Assembly (NCBI GenBank): GCA_038257035.1
Contig: JBBSJT010000050.1
Coordinates: 1 to 16,729 of the forward strand
Source: Chlamydiia bacterium
GTDB lineage: Bacteria > Chlamydiota > Chlamydiia > Chlamydiales > Parachlamydiaceae
Reading direction: 5' to 3'
DNA length: 16,729 bases
Numbering within the stretch: position 1 is the first letter of the stretch; each line of letters opens with the position of its first letter. The notes beneath the pieces are model-generated. The model worked only from the letters and a program-made list of their open reading frames with translations, was not told where the DNA came from and made no database searches. This document shows, piece after piece, positions 2 through 11,696 of the stretch. The position numbers and the translations under genes were made by a program.

Positions 2-1483
2 AACGATGACATTTTAATTACCGATGCTGCAAAAGCTATTGCCATTGCAGGTGTTATGGGTGGGTTAAATAGTGAAATTAGCGATCAGACAAAAAATATT
101 GTGATTGAATCTGCAATCTTCCACCCGGGAGCCATTCGCAAGACCAGTAAAAGACTAAGCCTTCAAACCGATGCATCCAAGCGATTTGAAAGAGGGACCG
201 ATGCAAATATTGTAATACATTCACTTAACTTATGTGCAAACCTCATCCAGCGTTTATGTTCAGGGAAGGTTGTAAAAGGTTTGATCGATATAAAAGAAAA
301 AGAATTTGATAAGAAAATCATTTCATGCAGGCTTGCTCGAGTGAATGAGATTTTAGGAACACATCTTGGTGTTAGCGAGCTTGAATCCATTTTTAAAAAA
401 TTAGAAATGGAAGTAACAGTAGATGGTAAATCTGTTTTTATGGTCAAGGTTCCAACGTACAGAAATGATGTTCAAACAGAAATTGATCTTGTTGAAGAAG
501 CTGCAAGGATTTATGGATTTGAAAATATTCCAAAGGCTCAACCGCAATATCATGGTTCTACAATCCCTCATTCTCCAATGTACCTGATTGAAAATGATGT
601 TAGAACAAGTCTATTAGGACAAGGTTTGCAAGAATTTTTAACCTGCGATCTGATTGGGCCCAGCGCTTTAAGCGTCACCAATGGTTCTAATATGCCGGAA
701 GATGCTGTTGTCAAGGTGTTAAATCCAACATCGATTGAGCAGTCGATCTTAAGAACGTCTCTTCTGCCTGGACTTCTTCAAACAATCAAATATAATGTGG
801 ATCATCAAAATCACGATATCAGCGGTTTTGAAATTGGACGCATTCATTTTAAAGATAAAGAGAAGTATAAAGAACATTCTGTTGCCGCTATTATTCTTAC
901 GGGCAAAAGCCAGCTTGAATCCTGGAATGACAAACCGGCCGATGTGGATTTTTATGACTTAAAAGGCATCATTGAAAACTTGTTAGATGAAAATGGAATT
1001 AAGGGCTATCAGTTTAGAGAACACAAGCTAAAAACTTTCCATGATGCAAGACAAGCCGGAATTTTTGTAGGCGATCTTGAGATAGGTTCCATGGGCGAAA
1101 TTCACCCTGCAATCATCAGGAAATTGGATGTTACCAAGCGTATTTTATTTGCTGAAATTAGCTTGCATGATCTTTACCCATTAAGAAAAAATGATCAAAA
1201 AATGGCACCTTTACCTGTTTTTCCAAATTCAACCAGAGATTGGACGCTTACAGTTAAGGAAGAGGTGACTTATGAGCAATTGTTAAAGATGATTGATTCA
1301 GTTGATTCAAAGCTTCTTGAAAAAGTCACTTTAATCGACATTTACAGAAGTGAAAAATTGGGTAAAGGATTAAAAAATATGACCTTACGATTTATCTATC
1401 GGGATAATGAAAAAACAGTGTCTCAAGAAAATGTGGATGCAGAACATTCAACCATAACAAATGAAACAATTAAATTTATATGA
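2..1483 (+). CDS. pheT: Phenylalanine--tRNA ligase beta subunit (5'-truncated by the window edge)
   Basis: Frame is open from base 2 (NDDILITDAAKAIAIAGVMGG...). PheT motifs AGVMGG, ESAIF, TDASKRFERG, VPTYRNDV..EIDLVEE..RIYGF, LRTSLLPGLL and a C-terminal FDX-ACB-like segment (FPNSTRD...DIY). Confidence 0.97.
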   Translation, partial: NDDILITDAAKAIAIAGVMGGLNSEISDQTKNIVIESAIFHPGAIRKTSKRLSLQTDASKRFERGTDANIVIHSLNLCANLIQRLCSGKVVKGLIDIKEKEFDKKIISCRLARVNEILGTHLGVSELESIFKKLEMEVTVDGKSVFMVKVPTYRNDVQTEIDLVEEAARIYGFENIPKAQPQYHGSTIPHSPMYLIENDVRTSLLGQGLQEFLTCDLIGPSALSVTNGSNMPEDAVVKVLNPTSIEQSILRTSLLPGLLQTIKYNVDHQNHDISGFEIGRIHFKDKEKYKEHSVAAIILTGKSQLESWNDKPADVDFYDLKGIIENLLDENGIKGYQFREHKLKTFHDARQAGIFVGDLEIGSMGEIHPAIIRKLDVTKRILFAEISLHDLYPLRKNDQKMAPLPVFPNSTRDWTLTVKEEVTYEQLLKMIDSVDSKLLEKVTLIDIYRSEKLGKGLKNMTLRFIYRDNEKTVSQENVDAEHSTITNETIKFI

Positions 1484-1577
1484 ACAAATCCCAATATTTT
1501 ATTAATGCCAAAAAGGCCAAAAAATTAATGAATAGAATAGCGGGATTAAGTTCATAGCATTAAAGGCGAGGATCAAT

Positions 1578-2537
1578 ATGAAAATTCTTAAAATTTCCAC
1601 TCTATTTGCTTTAGCGCTAATCATCAGCGGATGTGAAAAAACAAATTATGGCCCGATCGTTGAGGAAACTTATGTTCATCGATATGGTGTTGAAGTTCCG
1701 GCACAAGATTGGGCGGTCAAAGGACAATCCGGTAAAGTAATTACTACACTAAAAAATGGTGTTGTTTGTACGAAAAACGTTTCTAGCGGTATTTTGGAGG
1801 GGGAGACATCCTACACTTTTCCTTACTCCGAAACTGTACAAAAGGTGGAAAGCTACCAAAATGGAAACCTTGAAAAGATGATGGTCTATTACCGTTCAGG
1901 AAAACCTGCTCAAGAAGTCATTTTTAATGGGCAAACCCGCCACGTTACTAAGTGGTACGAAAATGGGGCTCCGCAATCAAAAGAAGAAATTGAAAATGAT
2001 AAATTAGTCACTGCCCACTATTACAGCCCTAAAAATCATTTAGAAGCCCAAGTAATTTTCGGAAATGGAAACCGCATCCAACGCGATGTTTATGGCCAAA
2101 GTCTTTCTGTTGACACAATTCAGGATGGTGAGATGGTTCTTTGTGCGACAACGCATTCAAACGGTGCTCCAAAAGATTTGATTCCTTATAAAAACCGCGT
2201 TATTGAAGGGGAGTTAAGAACCTATCTTCCAGCCGGAGAGCCCAATACCATTGAAATGTGGTATGATGGTCAAAAAGAAGGTATTACGGTCACTTTTTTA
2301 AACGGTGAGAAATATGCAGAAATTCCTTACGTTTCAGGGCTTAAGCATGGAATCGAAAAACGTTTTAAAGATGGAAGACAAATCATCGAAGAGCTTACAT
2401 GGAATAACGACAAACGCCATGGCCCATCTTACTCTTATATCGGTGATAACAAAAGAACAGATTGGTATTTTCAGGACCGCTTAGTCACAGAAAAGACATT
2501 CGATCTTCTTGATCACGGCAGAACACCCAAAGCTTAG
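1578..2537 (+). CDS. Lipoprotein with MORN-variant (YwqK-like) beta repeats
   Basis: Signal peptide with lipobox IISG-C19. Repeated YYxSG/WYENG/Y..G.K.G units typical of MORN-variant repeats. RBS GAGGA upstream. Confidence 0.8.
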   Translation: MKILKISTLFALALIISGCEKTNYGPIVEETYVHRYGVEVPAQDWAVKGQSGKVITTLKNGVVCTKNVSSGILEGETSYTFPYSETVQKVESYQNGNLEKMMVYYRSGKPAQEVIFNGQTRHVTKWYENGAPQSKEEIENDKLVTAHYYSPKNHLEAQVIFGNGNRIQRDVYGQSLSVDTIQDGEMVLCATTHSNGAPKDLIPYKNRVIEGELRTYLPAGEPNTIEMWYDGQKEGITVTFLNGEKYAEIPYVSGLKHGIEKRFKDGRQIIEELTWNNDKRHGPSYSYIGDNKRTDWYFQDRLVTEKTFDLLDHGRTPKA

Positions 2538-2549
2538 ATATATAGATCT

Positions 2550-2587
2550 TAAGTATCCTGCACCTCAGGGTGTAGGATACTTATTCT
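2550..2587 (+). terminator. Stem-loop, probable intrinsic terminator after the pheT-lipoprotein pair
   Basis: TAAGTATCCTGCACC-TCAG-GGTGTAGGATACTTA: 15-bp stem with one G:U pair, 12 nt after the stop codon. The U-tract is weak (TTCT). Confidence 0.65.
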
Positions 2588-2722
2588 AATTCAACCTGAA
2601 ACTTCAGCGCCAAGTCTAATTAGATTTACCTTATTATTTTTTTTACTGTAAAAAAACCTTTCAATTTTCAATTGTTAGTATGTATCATTTCTTTGTTGAA
2701 AATTTTTCAATTTAAATTGATG

Positions 2723-2752
2723 TTGTTACTATTGTGTGTTAAGTATTATAAT
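2723..2752 (+). promoter_or_regulatory. Putative sigma-70/sigma-66 promoter of the 628-aa gene
   Basis: TTGTTA (2723-2728), 18 nt, TATAAT (2747-2752), 35 nt before the ATG. The AT-rich background lowers specificity. Confidence 0.45.
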
Positions 2753-2787
2753 GTAAATATGTTTAATCATTAAATGGGGGCTTAGTT

Positions 2788-4674
2788 ATGGAAGGAATGA
2801 ATAGTAACTTAACAAGATCGACTAATCAAACTAGTTTATCGACTTCGACTGCTTCAACTACATCAACTACCTCGACTAATTCAATAGATAAAAATCGAAG
2901 TGAAATTAATGATATTGCAAATTCGACGATTACAAAAACTAACATTACTAAAAATAATGCATTAAAGGAATATTTCCCCTCTGTATTCCATGGCAAGATT
3001 GATACAGTTGGGAAAGTTGCGCTAGCAGCTGCAATTTTTGTGACAGCGCCAGTTACTCTCACAGTTCATGCTGTAACTACCGCAATCAAAAGCAGTTTAG
3101 CCAAAAATGAGAACGATGTGCTTCTAGATGAATGGGGTTTAAACCTAAATCCAGGAGAGAAAGCCCCCATCGATTTGGGTCTTAAACCAGAAACTATGCG
3201 ACTTATTAATGGTGAGTTAAAAAATCCAACTATTTCACAGCTAAAAGCTGCAAATACTGATTTAAGCAATACAAAACAAACGACAATTAAGAAGTTTGAA
3301 GATTTAGCTGGTAATCTGAATTTTAATCCTAAAAAAGGGGAGTACCGCACTGACAAAGGGTGTGTTAACCTAAATTTATCTTCGGAAACACTTTCAATAC
3401 TTAATCAAGAAAATAAACTACCTACAATTAAAGAATTAGTTGCTGCAATTTCGGATATAGAAAATGCTAGTATGCAAGCTGATGATCCCGCAACTATAGA
3501 AAAGGAATTAGTCGAATTGAGCAAGACATGGGTAGATAGAGAGTTATTGGGCGACACAGTACCACGCACAGATTTAAAACCGTTAACACTAAATTATTTA
3601 ACAAAAGTTAAAGGACATGAGCTTTCAAACTTAAGTGTGAAAAACAGGGTTCTCATAGTTAATGACATGAAGAGTAAGGCCCCTCAAATGGATATAGTAA
3701 TTTCCGAATTAAAAAAAATCATTCAGGATCCAAGAATATCTGATGAAAGAAAAATAGAAGGCTATACCGCAGACCTTATTAGAAACATTAAAGAGGGTAA
3801 AGATAAGAGCGATTTGGGAATATATATGAAATTGACAGCTGTTACAGGTTTGTTAGAAGCTAATGGTAATATTAAAGACGTGTCAAAAAAACTATCTGAA
3901 GTTAATAGAAATGAATTAGAGACAGCAAAAAGGAGTCTTACTGCTACAATGAAAGAAAGATTCCCTGAAAGCATAGTCAAATATACTCTGAGTACAAACA
4001 AACATTTTATCTTTAACCAAGGAGAGGTCAATAAAGTTTTTTCATCACCTCCAAAGATTTTAAATGCTTCAAATATTAATGATTTTTGTAAGACGTTTAA
4101 GCTTGAGACTTCTCAACGAATGGATGCATTGCGTTTTCGTTCAGATTATGTTTCAACAAATGATTTAAAACTTGCGACGCCTTTATATCAGGAGCCATTA
4201 AATATTGAAAACAGAGCTCGAGTTCAAAAATTGAGCAGTAACCTTCAAGAAGAGCTTAATTTTTATAATGGTGTATTGCAAGCCTTAAAAACCAATGATG
4301 AGAATCAAACAAAATCACTTCACTGGGGAGCAATCAATTCAATTTACAATATAAAACCAGGCTCTGTTAATAATTTGGGTTTGAAAGGTCCAATACCTTT
4401 AAGATACAATTACCCAGATGAAAATGATCCGCTTATGAACCAATGCTTGCCTGATAACTATCCCATCCATATGCCTAATTTATCAAGTCCAAATGGTGAG
4501 CCAAGAATTGAAATAAAAAGTGAAGATGAGTTTAAGCAACTTATTGCAAGTTACAGTACCTATTTTAAAGAGGTTGATGCTGTCATTAAGTCTACAACTT
4601 CGATTATCAGGGATAAAACCTTGATTCAAGCCGAATTAAAGAGGGTTCTGGACATTAAAAGTGAAGAGATTTAA
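2788..4674 (+). CDS. Hypothetical protein, putative type III-secreted effector or Inc-like protein with internal helical repeats
   Basis: 628-aa ORF. Ser/Thr/Asn-rich N-terminus, hydrophobic stretch at aa ~77-100, degenerate ~65-aa repeats. No recognisable enzyme motif. Confidence 0.6.
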   Translation: MEGMNSNLTRSTNQTSLSTSTASTTSTTSTNSIDKNRSEINDIANSTITKTNITKNNALKEYFPSVFHGKIDTVGKVALAAAIFVTAPVTLTVHAVTTAIKSSLAKNENDVLLDEWGLNLNPGEKAPIDLGLKPETMRLINGELKNPTISQLKAANTDLSNTKQTTIKKFEDLAGNLNFNPKKGEYRTDKGCVNLNLSSETLSILNQENKLPTIKELVAAISDIENASMQADDPATIEKELVELSKTWVDRELLGDTVPRTDLKPLTLNYLTKVKGHELSNLSVKNRVLIVNDMKSKAPQMDIVISELKKIIQDPRISDERKIEGYTADLIRNIKEGKDKSDLGIYMKLTAVTGLLEANGNIKDVSKKLSEVNRNELETAKRSLTATMKERFPESIVKYTLSTNKHFIFNQGEVNKVFSSPPKILNASNINDFCKTFKLETSQRMDALRFRSDYVSTNDLKLATPLYQEPLNIENRARVQKLSSNLQEELNFYNGVLQALKTNDENQTKSLHWGAINSIYNIKPGSVNNLGLKGPIPLRYNYPDENDPLMNQCLPDNYPIHMPNLSSPNGEPRIEIKSEDEFKQLIASYSTYFKEVDAVIKSTTSIIRDKTLIQAELKRVLDIKSEEI

Positions 4675-4700
4675 CCTAAACAATCTGATTTATAGCGGCA

Positions 4701-4979
4701 TTATTCAATCTCAATGCTGCCATTAATCGCACACTGACAGGCAAGACGGTAAGCCCCCGGAGGGCATCCTTTTTGTTTAAGAGTGCTTTCCTCATTTGAA
4801 CACATTTTTGTCAGGTTTTCGTTTCCTGAAAGAACGTGAATAACACACACACCACATTTTCCTCGTGTACAACCAAATTTGAGTGGCATTTCAGGATTTT
4901 GCTTTTTTGCTTGAAGAAGTTCAATGCCTTCCGAGACTGTAAAAGTCTGATTTTTTGTTTTGAAGGTTATTTGAGGCAT
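4701..4979 (-). CDS. 2Fe-2S ferredoxin
   Basis: FGCTRGKCGVC (C-X4-C-X2-C) plus RLACQC. Overlaps the end of the upstream gene by 13 nt. Confidence 0.92.
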   Translation of the reverse strand: MPQITFKTKNQTFTVSEGIELLQAKKQNPEMPLKFGCTRGKCGVCVIHVLSGNENLTKMCSNEESTLKQKGCPPGAYRLACQCAINGSIEIE

Positions 4980-5527
4980 AATTCAACCTTTTTAAAGTCT
5001 TGCATATTCCATTCTGTTTCAATTAGGTCTGTAAATTCTCTTAAAGTTTCATCAAATGCATACTTCTTAAACACAATGGGGTGGTTGTTTTGATCAAATA
5101 AAATGACTCCGTCAAATGGATCACCATAGATTTTATAATACATCCGCTGCCTGGAAATAGGAATATTATGAAAAGAGGCAACATGACATTCGGTGCAAAG
5201 ATCATTTTTAAAAAAATAGGTTTCTTTAAAAACCAACCGATCATCTTGATCGCTTAAAAAGCAGATAACTTTTTCAGGCGTTTCGCTAATGGTCTCTTTT
5301 TTCCAAGCACGATGGTCTTCATTTTTCAAATGCCTAAAGTTTAAAAAGGCAGAATCGTATACAATGCTTTCAAAACAATTTTTAGCATATTTTTCAATGC
5401 TTATGTGCTTTCTGTAAGGGTCCATCACAATTTTGTAGGTTTCATTTTCGTTTACCGGTTCCTCAATCTGCCCTATTCCATAGGGGATACCCTCTTTCCA
5501 AAAATAATCTCGATAATGTTTTGTCAC
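4967..5527 (-). CDS. Hypothetical protein, probably co-translated with the ferredoxin
   Basis: 186-aa ORF with GTG start and AGGAG RBS on the minus strand. Aromatic, beta-strand-like composition. No function recognised. Confidence 0.75.
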   Translation of the reverse strand: MTKHYRDYFWKEGIPYGIGQIEEPVNENETYKIVMDPYRKHISIEKYAKNCFESIVYDSAFLNFRHLKNEDHRAWKKETISETPEKVICFLSDQDDRLVFKETYFFKNDLCTECHVASFHNIPISRQRMYYKIYGDPFDGVILFDQNNHPIVFKKYAFDETLREFTDLIETEWNMQDFKKVELCLK

Positions 5528-5584
5528 AGTAGTCTCCTAAAGAAAACAGCATCTCACAAAAGAAAATAATACAAAACATTTTTT

Positions 5585-5601
5585 TTGGCACGGGCTTCGC
5601 A
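5585..5601 (+). promoter_or_regulatory. Sigma-54 (-24/-12) promoter of small protein copy 1
   Basis: TTGGCACGGGCTTCGCA: GG 5587-5588, N10, GC 5599-5600. One mismatch to TGGCACG-N4-TTGC. Confidence 0.75.
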
Positions 5602-5648
5602 TCTACCTAACTATATGAAACAAACGACCGTTAGGATGAGGGGGATAT

Positions 5649-5846
5649 ATGACTAAAAAAGAACTAATGAAACAAATAGCGGGTTTAGAGTCAATTAACG
5701 ATCAACTTATTACAGAACTTCAAATGGTAGATCAACTGATGCGTGATGTGGGCTTCTCAAACGGTTTAGAAACTATTAAGGCTACAGCTCTAGAACTACA
5801 AAATAACCCTGAAGCCTATATGGAGATGGAAGAAGATGAGTCATAA
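5649..5846 (+). CDS. Small helical protein, paralog 1 (LE-x-INDQL...GF-x-x-GLETIK family)
   Basis: 65-aa ORF with RBS GAGGGG, an upstream sigma-54 motif and two paralogs nearby. From memory it resembles the small chlamydial CT652.1/CPn0725-type protein (unverified). Confidence 0.88.
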   Translation: MTKKELMKQIAGLESINDQLITELQMVDQLMRDVGFSNGLETIKATALELQNNPEAYMEMEEDES

Positions 5847-5854
5847 ATCTCTTG

Positions 5855-5871
5855 TTGGCACGCTTTTTGCA
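5855..5871 (+). promoter_or_regulatory. Sigma-54 promoter pointing into non-coding DNA (sRNA copy 1)
   Basis: TTGGCACGCTTTTTGCA is a full match to TGGCACG-N4-TTGC(A/T), 8 nt after the stop of paralog 1. Predicted +1 near 5882. Confidence 0.85.
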
Positions 5872-5881
5872 ACAATATAAA

Positions 5882-6049
5882 TATATTTGACCCCGAGTTT
5901 CTTGTCGGCCTAAGGCCTTACAATACACACGGGGCTGACAACTGTTGACCCCTGCCCGGGGTAATAACAGTTACGGTAACAACTTTGATACTCCTTGTTT
6001 GGTTACCCGGCTAGATGAACCTTAAAAACTTCATCAGCTCGGGTTTTTT
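5882..6049 (+). ncRNA. Candidate sigma-54-dependent small RNA, long form (~168 nt)
   Basis: Bounded by a consensus sigma-54 promoter and an intrinsic terminator. GC-rich relative to its surroundings, four hairpins foldable by eye, no credible ORF. Confidence 0.65.
6005..6049 (+). terminator. Intrinsic terminator, copy 1
   Basis: ACCCG-GCT-A-GATGAA...TTCATC-AGCTCGGGT followed by a T run (6044-6049). Confidence 0.8.
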
Positions 6050-6102
6050 ATTGCAAGGGTGTGTACAGCCATTTTATAAATCTGCAAATCCCACATTTTT
6101 CG

Positions 6103-6455
6103 CTGACTAAGGAAGAGCTAATGAAACAAATAGCAGGAGTATATCATCTCGTTTAAATTGGTAGTTAATATGCTTGTATTTTGCCTCTAGTTTAAGAATT
6201 AAATTTCAATACCATACATTTTTGTAGGATTGAAATTTAATTCTTAAAATAGAGGTGAAAGACAAGTATAGTATCTATCAATTAAAACGATATGATGTAC
6301 AAGAGTCAATTAACGATCAACTTATCACAGAACTTCAAATGGTAGACCAACTCATGCGCGATGTAGGCTTCTCAAATGGTTTAGAGACAATTAAAGCAAC
6401 AGCCCAAGAACTACAGAATAATCCTGAAGCCTATATGGAAGAAGATGAGTCATAA
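6103..6455 (+). pseudogene. Small protein paralog 2, interrupted by a palindromic insertion
   Basis: 6103-6138 encodes (L)TKEELMKQIAG, with CTG in place of ATG. 6303-6455 encodes ESINDQ...EEDES* in another frame. There is an in-frame stop at 6154-6156 inside the insert. ORF 6255-6455 is an insert/gene chimera. Confidence 0.75.
6139..6300. mobile_element. 162-bp imperfect palindromic element (MITE- or RPE-like)
   Basis: 72-bp arms 6139-6210 and 6229-6300 match as inverted repeats at 61/72. Absent from the equivalent position of paralogs 1 and 3. Confidence 0.8.
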
Positions 6456-6463
6456 ATCTCTTG

Positions 6464-6480
6464 TTGGCACGCTTTTCGCA
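6464..6480 (+). promoter_or_regulatory. Sigma-54 promoter (sRNA copy 2)
   Basis: TTGGCACGCTTTTCGCA: GG 6466-6467, N10, GC 6478-6479. Predicted +1 near 6491. Confidence 0.75.
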
Positions 6481-6490
6481 ACAATATAAA

Positions 6491-6561
6491 TATATTTGAT
6501 ACTCCTTGTTTGGTTACCCGAGCTAGATGAACCTTAAAAAATTCATCAGCTCGGGTTTTTT
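6491..6561 (+). ncRNA. Candidate sigma-54-dependent small RNA, short form (~70 nt)
   Basis: Same promoter and 3' module as copy 1, but lacks the segment equivalent to 5891-5988. Confidence 0.5.
6516..6561 (+). terminator. Intrinsic terminator, copy 2
   Basis: ACCCGAGCT-A-GATGAA...TTCATC-AGCTCGGGT followed by a T run. Confidence 0.85.
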
Positions 6562-6658
6562 ATTGCCGCACAAATTTATGCAAAATTAAATTTTTCTTAA
6601 TCCAACGTTAACAACAATCCGTTTTAATTGAGGGCATAACAAGACAAAGAGGTGTAAA

Positions 6659-6916: not shown

Positions 6917-8128
6917 TTACTTGGTTGTTAGTTTTTCGATTAAGCTATCTGCAAACCATTGATGTTTCTTGTTGATTTCCCCATGTGGGCAAAATAATTC
7001 TAGCTCTTTGCAGTGATAAAGGAAAAACAAATGAGATTTAAAGGGGCTTTTAAACCGGTAGATTTCACATAATTCCTGTAACAAGTTTTTGGTTTTAGAA
7101 AGACAATCCTCATAAGAAGAATCGGTCATATATAAAATAAAATCTTTAAAATACTTATGTAAAACAACAGAGCATCCCTCTTCTGAGGTGTTAAGTGTTG
7201 ATAATCCGGAATTAAAGGGAAGATGAAAAAATTCTTCGAAAACATGTATTAAAGGTTCCAATTTTTTAAGTTCGTCTTCTGTTAAAGAAGATAAAAGTTC
7301 TACTTTACATTCTAAAAGAGTATAATCTGCTCCCATTAAAATAATTTCTTTAAAATTCATTAAATTCAAGGCAATGCCTTGTAGAGTTCCTTCGCTTAAA
7401 AGTTCAAAAAAAGAAATAAAAGAATGATATATTTTAATCTCATCAGATTTTTGGGCAAGAATGTTGCATTTAAGAACATCTGAAATGGAAAATTCTGAAA
7501 GGTAAATTTTAAATTCCTTGCCTGCTTCAATACAAGCCTTTTCACATAAATCTAAAACGTTGAATTCATGATTTTTTGATTCTGTAAGACATGATTCAAG
7601 AGTTGTTTGAAAAAATTTACGGTTATATTTCATGAAAGCATTAAAACTGCTGTCTTGGAATATCCCATACTTATCTTGGATCGCATGATGTGCAGCGACA
7701 TTAATTTTATGGAACATCAATTTTTTAGGGCCGGTAAACTCAATAGCAAACCATTTTGTTCCTATGGTGTCATAGATACAATTTTTAGCAACAGATAGAA
7801 CTTTAGGAAATATTTCATTTAAATGAAAACATTGGTTAGAAAAAGAATGATTTAAAAGATAAAATTGCTGACAGACTTTTGGTAGAATTGACAACCTTGT
7901 TTTTGGGTCTATTGATTCAAAAATATGCAAATTGATTTCATCAGGAAGTACAAGTTGATTTGATTTTGTATTGAAAATAATTTTCTCAAGGTCTTCAATT
8001 TTTTTATTGGGGTGAGGAAATTCTGGCAAGTTTTTTGTAGGAAATTCTTCAGCTATGCTACTTGAAGATGCGTATCCCGTTAAATAGGAATAGATTTTAT
8101 AAGTGTCTATGTTACGATCATTATTCAT
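6917..8128 (-). CDS. F-box-like domain protein, putative effector
   Basis: LPDEINLHIFESIDPKTRLSILPKVCQQFYLL (from aa 61) fits the F-box pattern LP.E....IF..L....L....VC..(W/F). The remainder is unrecognised and probably helical. Confidence 0.75.
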   Translation of the reverse strand: MNNDRNIDTYKIYSYLTGYASSSSIAEEFPTKNLPEFPHPNKKIEDLEKIIFNTKSNQLVLPDEINLHIFESIDPKTRLSILPKVCQQFYLLNHSFSNQCFHLNEIFPKVLSVAKNCIYDTIGTKWFAIEFTGPKKLMFHKINVAAHHAIQDKYGIFQDSSFNAFMKYNRKFFQTTLESCLTESKNHEFNVLDLCEKACIEAGKEFKIYLSEFSISDVLKCNILAQKSDEIKIYHSFISFFELLSEGTLQGIALNLMNFKEIILMGADYTLLECKVELLSSLTEDELKKLEPLIHVFEEFFHLPFNSGLSTLNTSEEGCSVVLHKYFKDFILYMTDSSYEDCLSKTKNLLQELCEIYRFKSPFKSHLFFLYHCKELELFCPHGEINKKHQWFADSLIEKLTTK

Positions 8129-10859: not shown

Positions 10860-11696
10860 ATGAATAAATTAAAACTATGGGACCAGCACCAAACCTTTGA
10901 TGAAGCAGAAAAAGATTGGGAATCTAAAAGTATCCAAGCTGCCTCATGTCATCCCATAAAAAAATTGGGAACACTTCCTAATATGGTGGGAATGACACCG
11001 GAGACTGCAAAAAATTTGAAATGGAAAAGTTTAAAATGGATTGTGAAGGAAGATCGCGATCGAAAAATCTTAAAAAGTATTTTAAAGCATCCCATACGAT
11101 ACTTAAAAGGGTATCTTAAATCTTTTTTTAAGCCAAAACCTTTTAAAAGAGTAGGGGATTTCTTTCTATACGGTGTAGATTCCTTGGATTCTTTTAAAAA
11201 GCTTTTAAAAAAACCAGATAATCTATTTGTTTTAGGCTTCTCTTATTGTCATAAGCCCTTTGAGTGCCCATCCGGGCGATTTACTGACCGTTGCGTACAT
11301 GACTTAAATAACCCTGTCTGCCAACAATGCTTTATTGGAAAAGCCGTTCATGCATTACCTGCAAAACGATCGATCCCCTTATTTATTCCAACGATTCATT
11401 ATATCGGTGGCAAAATTTTTGATATCATTGAAGAAAACCCTGGTAAACAAGTTCTTTTTGTGATTACAGCGTGCGAAATGACGCTCGAAATGTTTGGTGA
11501 TCTTGGAAATATGGTTGATATTAAAGGCGTGGGTGTCAGATTAGATGGCCGTATATGTAATACGATGAAAGCTTTCGAGCTCTCCGAAAAGGGGATAAAA
11601 CCAGGACTTACCGTTGTGCTGGACGACACGCAAAAAGAGATGATGGAAATTATACGTTTACGAAGAGACGTTATAACAAACAAGGAAAATCTATGA
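10860..11696 (+). CDS. Cys-rich hypothetical protein, possibly DUF116-like and metal-binding
   Basis: FSYCHKPFECP...C...CQQC.IG...TACE...RIC cysteine pattern. Stop overlaps the next start (ATGA). The start codon is uncertain. Confidence 0.65.
   Translation: MNKLKLWDQHQTFDEAEKDWESKSIQAASCHPIKKLGTLPNMVGMTPETAKNLKWKSLKWIVKEDRDRKILKSILKHPIRYLKGYLKSFFKPKPFKRVGDFFLYGVDSLDSFKKLLKKPDNLFVLGFSYCHKPFECPSGRFTDRCVHDLNNPVCQQCFIGKAVHALPAKRSIPLFIPTIHYIGGKIFDIIEENPGKQVLFVITACEMTLEMFGDLGNMVDIKGVGVRLDGRICNTMKAFELSEKGIKPGLTVVLDDTQKEMMEIIRLRRDVITNKENL

Follow-up and report, generated by a model that had tools for sequence, protein, structure and literature searches.

A candidate sigma-54-dependent short RNA locus carrying an inserted mobile hairpin repeat in a Parachlamydiaceae genome

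We analyzed positions 5882–6049 of a 16,729-nucleotide (nt) stretch of DNA (the window) from a Chlamydiia bacterium of the family Parachlamydiaceae. An initial annotation, made from the sequence alone, had read this segment as a single small RNA (sRNA) of 165–170 nt, composed of three hairpins (H1, H2, and H3) and a terminator, behind a perfect sigma-54 promoter. Our analysis suggests, with a probability of roughly 0.55, that the segment is a composite of a genus-conserved, sigma-54-linked unit of approximately 70 nt (the core) and an inserted mobile hairpin repeat, and that it is a candidate sigma-54-dependent small or 3'-end RNA. The proposed sigma-54-linked non-coding unit exists and is conserved within the genus, but its four-hairpin composition did not hold up, as H1 and H2 belong to a repeat and H3 is unsupported. 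The conserved entity measures about 70 nt instead of 165–170 nt, and only the last third of the proposed RNA is plausible as a regulatory RNA. The organism is represented by metagenome-assembled genomes only. Its draft genome (G000) comprises 2.37 Mb in 210 contigs with 36% G+C, the window being contig C50, and two congeneric genomes of uncultured Parachlamydiaceae (G001 and G002, genus g1) are available for comparison.

Insertion of a dispersed hairpin repeat

The motifs listed in the initial annotation were all found in place. The 181-nt stretch containing them folded at -53.7 kcal/mol, below all of 200 shuffled sequences (z = -3.21). Analysis of the partition function indicated that H1 and H2 are well formed, with pair probabilities of 0.77–1.0, and the terminator hairpin with its U-tract is present in the minimum-free-energy (MFE) structure. 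H3, proposed from the pairing of GGTAAC (5975–5980) with GTTACC (6002–6007), reached a pair probability of only 0.04–0.07 and is missing from the MFE structure.

Comparison of the segment with the rest of the genome revealed that H1 and most of H2 form one copy of a 79-nt dispersed repeat, which resembles repetitive extragenic palindromes (REP), REP doublets forming hairpins (REPIN), or the arms of miniature inverted-repeat transposable elements (MITE). A profile built from nine copies gave 16 nhmmer matches in this genome at E <= 1e-3, including the window copy, and a blastn search with the insert matched approximately positions 5890–5970 on both strands of seven other contigs, with identities of 74–87%. 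The 16 matches are all intergenic, with the exception of two that overlap doubtful open reading frames (ORFs) of 81 and 102 amino acids (aa). The repeat was found in none of the 30 other genomes searched, both congeners included, and is thus confined to G000 among the 31. One half of the supposed RNA gene is therefore a dispersed repeat, an outcome that the initial annotation had itself named as refuting. Since the excess folding energy comes largely from this half, the four-hairpin RNA is not one evolutionary unit. In practice, searches for RNA genes should allow for the fact that high folding scores in repeat-rich genomes may stem from REP/MITE insertions.

The repeat module occurs in inverted pairs at four loci (C137 1193–1437, C14 6268–6583, C14 12016–12423, and C1 44425–44533), where the paired modules sit at either end of palindromic elements up to ~400 nt long, while the window copy is a singlet. 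At the C137 locus and both C14 loci, the 79-nt module provides the outer arms, and an inner inverted pair, GCCCCGG.AGGGGTGTAAGAAT ... ATTCTTACACCCCT.CCGGGGC, surrounds a variable AT-rich center. The C14 copies are flanked by a further hairpin repeat (GGGRACGGTT...).

The locus itself is a tandem duplication. A repeat search of the window showed that positions 5826–5890 recur at 6435–6499 (98% identity) and positions 5984–6054 at 6495–6566 (98–100%), with a start-to-start spacing of 609 nt on the promoter side versus 511–512 nt on the core side. In the second copy, which carries no insert, ...ATATATTTGA continues straight into TACTCCTT..., and the promoter leads via ATATATTTGA into TACTCCTTGTTTGGTTACCCGAGC and the terminator. 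Upon comparing the two copies, a 98-nt insertion is evident in the first one (Table 1), and the direct repeat TTTGA bounds it at 5886–5890 and 5984–5988; such a flanking repeat was seen at this copy of the element only. H1 and H2 are missing from the second tandem copy (6465–6561), from G001, and from G002. An empty site is also present in a 350-nt soil DNA contig from a related strain (run X3), which covers positions 5563–5885 and then joins 5984, skipping exactly 98 nt, with 5 nt that fit either side. This contig differs from the window at 25 positions over 323 nt and carries, in order, the upstream promoter P1, the small ORF paralog 1 (ORF1), and the promoter P2, from where the skip leads to the core. 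It is identical to the window over positions 5855–5885, which include P2, and its P1 is altered only in the N5 spacer, at 5593–5595. Taken together, the dispersed copies of the repeat and the empty sites in copy 2, in the congeners, and in the X3 strain show that H1/H2 arose when a REP/REPIN- or MITE-arm-like element was inserted, an event that is recent and polymorphic between strains.

The insert-bearing form was observed in a contig of another soil run (X1), which covers positions 5869–6074 with one difference; since the genome may itself derive from the X1 sample, this contig lends no independent support. The X1 contig (361 nt) joins positions 5869–6074 to 6323–6477 and jumps from 6477 back by 609 to 5869, with 22 nt that fit either side. 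It reflects either a strain with a single, unduplicated, insert-bearing unit or a tandem repeat that was collapsed during assembly. Genes for Y1_Tnp transposases (PF01797), of the IS200/IS605 or RAYT type, are candidates for mobilizing the hairpin repeats. The genome holds nine such matches (C29:9113–9457 and on C119, C105, C7, C25, C48, and C68).

The conserved core and its sigma-54 promoters

The conserved entity is a unit of approximately 70 nt, in which a sigma-54 promoter is followed by ~25 unpaired nt containing CUCCUU and UUUGGUUACC and then by a strong intrinsic terminator. The promoter P2 bears out the claim of the initial annotation: its TGGCAC-N5-TTGCA sequence places GG at -24 and GC at -12 and keeps the exact 5-nt spacing of a sigma-54 promoter. 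The strict consensus represented by P2 has four matches in the 2.37-Mb genome versus one in a reversed-sequence control, and the looser pattern TGGCAY-N5-TTGCW has 15 versus one. From the usual spacing between -12 and +1, transcription from P2 is predicted to start near position 5882.

The genome also contains the matching machinery. The sigma-54 gene rpoN is present (PF04552 match on contig C11, 180 bits), together with a gene for a 389-aa sigma-54 activator (PF00158 on C47, 241 bits) that consists of receiver, AAA+, and lid domains and lacks a helix-turn-helix domain (no HTH_8). The activator gene follows a gene for a 347-aa histidine kinase (C47, locus L144, 13–2235), and the five other PF00158 matches in the genome reach only 19–31 bits. 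Judging from these domains, the kinase and the activator form what we take to be a CtcB/CtcC-like arrangement. The names CtcB and CtcC are those of PMC12282069 (this and the publications below are cited from part of their text). Lacking a DNA-binding domain, such an activator can do without an upstream site, and any good -24/-12 element is thus a plausible promoter. That the conserved segment of the core is instead an upstream DNA site for activator binding is unlikely, given that the sole strong PF00158 match has no DNA-binding domain.

The core copies always lie beside sigma-54-driven small-protein genes in the three genomes. The profile of this small-ORF family (consensus MTKxxLxxKIAxLESxNDQL...GFxxGLETxKxTA) matches 195 of 200 genomes of the class, and paralog 1 in the window has no Pfam match. 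A sigma-54-type promoter lies within ~130 nt upstream of the small ORF at nine of ten relatives' loci examined, and at 23 of 34 loci by a strict pattern, with an NTGCA promoter variant recognized by eye at five further loci. The small ORF is probably Ctl0021/CT652.1, whose published description it fits. In C. trachomatis, sigma-54 chromatin immunoprecipitation sequencing (ChIP-seq) is reported to give peaks at ctl0021 and ctl0052 only, both products being of unknown function, and a sigma-54 promoter precedes the ctl0021 homologues of Chlamydia-related bacteria (PMC12282069).

A pattern scan for CTCCTT-N0-5-TTGGTTACC identified the core in three of 73 family genomes, all of them from genus g1. 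G000 has two copies, G001 and G002 have one apiece, and the 70 family genomes of other genera have none. In G002, the sigma-54 promoter TTGGCATGGAATTTGCA is followed 20 nt on by CTCCTTTTGTTTGGTTACCGAGC, a hairpin, and T7; no ORF lies ahead, and the whole unit is located upstream of a small-ORF promoter and its ORF. The distance from promoter to CTCCTT is 20 nt in G002 and 21 nt in copy 2 of G000. In G001, the stop codon of ORFa, a divergent paralog with its own sigma-54 promoter, is immediately followed by TCTCCTTTTTGGTTACCGGG, a hairpin, and T7. The promoter, terminator, and ORF sequences thus place the core, as predicted from DNA, under sigma-54 control in all three genomes: directly in G000 (twice) and in G002, and via the ORFa mRNA in G001. 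The combination of an own promoter, an intrinsic terminator, and the lack of an ORF is found in G000 and G002, and not in G001, where the promoter is missing. A separate pattern, a sigma-54 promoter with CTCCTT within 14–30 nt, retrieved G002 and three other matches that are apparently coding and have no terminator; G000 escapes this pattern through the insert in copy 1 and the TCGCA in copy 2.

The cores of the three species all fold as ~25 unpaired nt plus a terminator (z = -4.7, -3.2, and -2.4), and the uninterrupted copy 2 reached -22.7 kcal/mol with z = -4.69, equaled by 0 of 200 shuffles. The conserved segment, our candidate seed, is mostly at least 0.83 unpaired in copy 2, compared with 0.33–0.84 in the insert-bearing copy 1, where the insert reduces its predicted accessibility. 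Its columns do not vary, whereas the hairpin tops of the different species bear no sequence relationship. Of the six consensus pairs that RNAalifold derived from four sequences, one carries a compensatory change (CG to UA) and another a GU/AU change, and MAFFT did not bring the diverged hairpin arms of the four core sequences into register.

As the initial annotation had stated, the segment belongs to no known RNA family: Rfam (release 15) gave no match at gathering thresholds. At a permissive E-value only chance-level matches appeared, the best one on the core being NsiR1 on copy 2 (18.6 bits versus a threshold of 39, E = 0.75). The annotation was also right that no ORF with a ribosome-binding site (RBS) is present, since the four ORFs of at least 20 aa that overlap 5872–6056 (48, 26, 31, and 20 aa) are not conserved and have no RBS visible by eye. 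A hidden ORF or micropeptide in the core was likewise considered and rejected; the ATG (6015 in copy 1 and 6527 in copy 2) is located inside the hairpin, lacks an RBS, and is not kept in G002 or G001. When 41 genomes were searched at the DNA level with positions 5560–6060, relatives matched over the ORF and P1 only (query positions 26–265), with nothing over P2 or the RNA.

Table 1. Features of the locus in window coordinates
Feature	Position	Strand	Remarks
P1, sigma-54-type promoter of small ORF paralog 1	5586–5601	+	TGGCAC-N5-TCGCA; read from sequence
Small ORF paralog 1 (ORF1), 65 aa	5649–5846	+	Pan-chlamydial small-protein family
P2, perfect sigma-54 promoter	5856–5871	+	TGGCAC GCTTT TTGCA; TGGCAC 5856–5861, TTGCA 5867–5871; 10 nt past the ORF1 stop codon
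Full-length solo copy of the 79-nt dispersed hairpin repeat (REP/REPIN- or MITE-arm-like)	5890–5967	+	H1 and most of H2; nhmmer model positions 1–79, 71.9 bits
98-nt insertion	5891–5988	+	Repeat plus unique 16–21-nt tail (CAGTTACGGTAACAAC...); relative to copy 2 and the related strain
Conserved single-stranded segment of core copy 1, candidate seed	5989–6005	+	CUCCUU-G-UUUGGUUA; invariant in 4 copies from 3 species save for a 0–3-nt spacer
Intrinsic terminator of core copy 1	6006–6049	+	Hairpin 6006–6043, U-tract 6044–6049; homologous hairpins with divergent tops in G001 and G002
Small ORF paralog 2 (ORF2), interrupted	6104–6455	+	Broken by the palindromic element 6138–6301
Palindromic MITE-like element, 164 nt	6138–6301	.	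72-nt arms, 85% complementary; inverted-repeat search; dispersed in genome
P2', second promoter copy	6465–6480	+	TGGCAC GCTTT TCGCA; duplicate of P2
Core copy 2, uninterrupted ~70-nt unit	6491–6561	+	~25-nt unpaired 5' part with CUCCUUGUUUGGUUA, hairpin 6517–6555, U-tract 6556–6561
Small ORF paralog 3 (ORF3), 55 aa	6659–6826	+	Only a decayed sigma-54-like motif upstream

Possible role of the core and alternative readings

Structural and genomic analysis suggested a possible mode of action for the core. With the CtcC-like enhancer-binding protein as activator, the sigma-54 form of RNA polymerase would transcribe a short terminated RNA from P2 and P2', in concert with the adjacent Ctl0021-like small-protein genes. 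The transcript would start ~10 nt ahead of the conserved unpaired CU-rich segment (CUCCUU, the 0–3-nt spacer, and UUUGGUUACC) and would measure ~70 nt in its ancestral form and ~168 nt in the insert-bearing copy, where a solo arm of the repeat plus ~19 nt has been inserted ~9 nt past the predicted start, adding H1 and H2. With no terminator separating ORF1 from the core, the ORF1 mRNA could give rise to the same RNA 3' end. The unpaired CUCCUU...UUUGGUUA segment may serve as a seed that pairs with the ribosome-binding regions of mRNAs, like those of other short sigma-54-dependent or 3'-end-derived sRNAs, given the likeness of CUCCUU to an anti-Shine-Dalgarno sequence. We infer the firing of P2, the accumulation of the core RNA, and its action in trans from these sequence features. 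In its full form, the proposal is that the core is a CtcB/CtcC- and sigma-54-dependent regulatory RNA, produced from its own promoter and as the 3' end of Ctl0021-paralog mRNA, which acts through CUCCUU/UUUGGUUA on ribosome-binding sites in the late, elementary body (EB)-forming stage, with the REP insertion as a natural allele with a structured 5' end. We put this full form forward tentatively, as a possibility that falls short of even odds.

Several observations weigh against a short sigma-54-dependent RNA acting through the conserved segment. P2' carries TCGCA instead of TTGCA. The core in G001 has no promoter between ORFa and itself and is therefore only a 3' untranslated region (UTR) plus terminator there. 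The conservation and covariation are statistically weak, with just four copies from three species of one genus, and a metagenome scan of at least 118 loci added no further core homologue among the matches listed; of those listed and filtered, nine have a downstream T-run, none a sigma-54 promoter, and none is core-like. The variation of the spacer between CUCCUU and UUUGGUUACC (0–3 nt) argues against one long contiguous seed. Among 21 public runs listed, one is recorded as RNA (X17, a metatranscriptome, share 0.05), and its coverage was limited to positions 6138–6277 of the unrelated dispersed palindromic element. A genome-wide blastn-short search with the reverse complement of the seed found no conserved target mRNA. 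The best candidate, with 13 of 14 nt at its ribosome-binding site, a gene resembling that for cytochrome oxidase subunit III (C1:40560–40573), was rejected, as the extended match is gone at the G001 and G002 orthologues. The seed also paired with the 5' UTRs of the neighboring paralogs no better than shuffled seeds, 44–243 of 300 of which did as well. Finally, the conserved segment could instead serve the terminator or mRNA stability.

The last point leads to the alternative that survives best, namely that the core does no more than provide the small-ORF mRNA with its 3' UTR and intrinsic terminator, with P2 weak, fortuitous, or redundant and the segment preserved because it aids termination or stabilizes the 3' end of the mRNA. 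We consider this rather unlikely as a full explanation, although the initial annotation was correct that no terminator separates paralog 1 from the unit, and its 3' UTR alternative stays live with the G001 homologue, which directly follows the ORFa stop codon without a promoter and is a 3' UTR only. The absence of target complementarity, and of the core from the one RNA run, likewise fits a 3' UTR. Comparison of the three genomes, however, does not: in G002 the core is preceded by a consensus sigma-54 promoter but by no ORF, so that it cannot be a 3' UTR there, and G000 retains a consensus-grade sigma-54 promoter in both copies, at the same 20–21-nt distance to CUCCUU as in G002. A terminator alone also leaves unexplained the 17 invariant unpaired nt beside a diverged hairpin top.

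The core might also be a cis-acting 5' leader or attenuator, in which case P2 and P2' drive the downstream ORF2 and ORF3 and the terminator gates read-through. In every genome the core is located upstream of, and co-oriented with, a small-ORF paralog, and by eye neither ORF2 nor ORF3 in G000 has an intact sigma-54 promoter of its own (6056–6122 and 6562–6658). The motif upstream of paralog 3, again read by eye, is a decayed CCGCAC-N6-ATGCA (6567–6583) with its spacing off by one, and paralog 3 may be transcribed by read-through past the core terminator or from a different promoter. In G001 and G002, however, the downstream paralog has its own consensus sigma-54 promoter past the terminator. 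The terminator is strong (a stem of 8–15 bp with 6–7 U), no alternative antiterminator pairing was seen, and the seed pairs with downstream 5' UTRs no better than its shuffled versions. A leader function is thus improbable. The reading of the segment as a single structured sRNA of 165–170 nt, with its four hairpins as one functional fold, is largely refuted and very improbable: the stretch outfolds all its shuffles, H1 and H2 are stable, and this copy would yield an RNA of ~168 nt if P2 fires, but H1/H2 is a dispersed repeat missing from copy 2, both congeners, and the related strain, H3 hardly pairs, and no Rfam family matches.

If the preferred reading of the core as a sigma-54-dependent RNA is true, a non-coding member would be added to the very small chlamydial sigma-54 regulon, which counts two ChIP-bound promoters in C. 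trachomatis in the account of PMC12282069. In this environmental chlamydial genus, such an RNA would represent a new kind of late-stage regulon output and could help to find out what the regulon controls. A natural experiment is also at hand, as one promoter-to-terminator unit comes both with a mobile hairpin repeat at its 5' end and without one. The core itself appears in three configurations: with its own promoter (G000), standing alone (G002), and as a 3' UTR only (G001).

Genomic neighborhood and comparison with known systems

Across the class, the small ORF often occurs in tandem arrays of up to five copies, usually behind TGGCAY-N5-NTGCA, and often converges on a gene for an SNF2 helicase (loci L002–L012 and L160–L193). 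In the window, a 403-aa ORF (6917–8128) separates the small-ORF array from the SNF2 helicase gene, and G001 and G002 lack it at this position. It is one of five sizeable window ORFs without a Pfam match, the others being 1578–2537 (319 aa), 2788–4674 (628 aa), 4967–5527 (186 aa), and 10860–11696 (278 aa). The palindromic element that interrupts paralog 2 replaces 3 nt of its reading frame and draws sub-threshold Rfam matches to microRNA precursors; blastn identified its relatives on contigs C13, C5, C37, C24, C122, and C26.

The inserted H1/H2 element is similar to REP/REPIN elements and MITEs in that it is a short, GC-rich, intergenic hairpin that occurs on both strands, often as inverted pairs around a spacer, is species-specific, and shows presence/absence polymorphism. 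It differs in that the window copy is a singlet with a unique tail of ~19 nt, that a transposase partner is only a candidate, and that the 5-nt direct repeat is seen here only (for these elements, see PMC3337134 and PMC3184786, as far as the parts cited go). In the titles and abstract openings covered, from which most subscription journals are absent, we found nothing on this RNA or on sRNAs or REP/MITE elements of Parachlamydiaceae.

The proposed core RNA has counterparts among sigma-54-dependent sRNAs. Qrr1–5 of Vibrio, with LuxO, as well as GlmY, CrcZ, and NrsZ, are trans-acting sRNAs that depend on sigma-54. Like the Qrr-type sRNAs, the core combines a consensus -24/-12 promoter, a short non-coding RNA, an intrinsic terminator, and an unpaired conserved segment. 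Unlike them, it is known from sequence alone, is shorter (~70 nt), is confined to one genus, and has an activator that lacks a DNA-binding domain, and it shows no sequence or Rfam similarity to them. Both LuxO and sigma-54 are required for Qrr transcription (bioRxiv 10.1101/2021.07.01.450815).

With 3'-end-derived sRNAs, the core shares a terminator in common with an upstream protein-coding gene, and its three configurations run from an internal promoter (G000) through a unit alone (G002) to no promoter at all (G001). Examples of such sRNAs are those of the DapZ/MicL type and of the CpxQ/SroC type. In contrast to these, the promoter of the core is positioned just past the stop codon and not within the coding sequence, and any processing, accumulation, or targeting by its RNA is hypothetical. 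This class of sRNAs is reviewed in PMC9438474.

Among chlamydial RNAs, IhtA and the other Chlamydia sRNAs have a different promoter class from that of the core, which has no Rfam match to any chlamydial family. They are short regulatory RNAs of chlamydiae with links to the developmental cycle, which the core RNA is proposed to be as well. A closer parallel is provided by C. pneumoniae, where only two sigma-54-like promoters are described among 531 mapped start sites, both ahead of the sRNA candidates pCPn56 and pCPn57 (PMC3333780). These are, like the proposed core RNA, chlamydial non-coding transcripts behind sigma-54-like promoters, with the difference that their starts were mapped experimentally and that their promoters, compared by description alone, match only the minimal GG-N9-11-GC (PMC3333780). 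Speculatively, pCPn56 and pCPn57 might themselves be unannotated Ctl0021-type small ORFs. Set beside these systems, we rate the present locus as a further case of known kinds of RNA and repeat.

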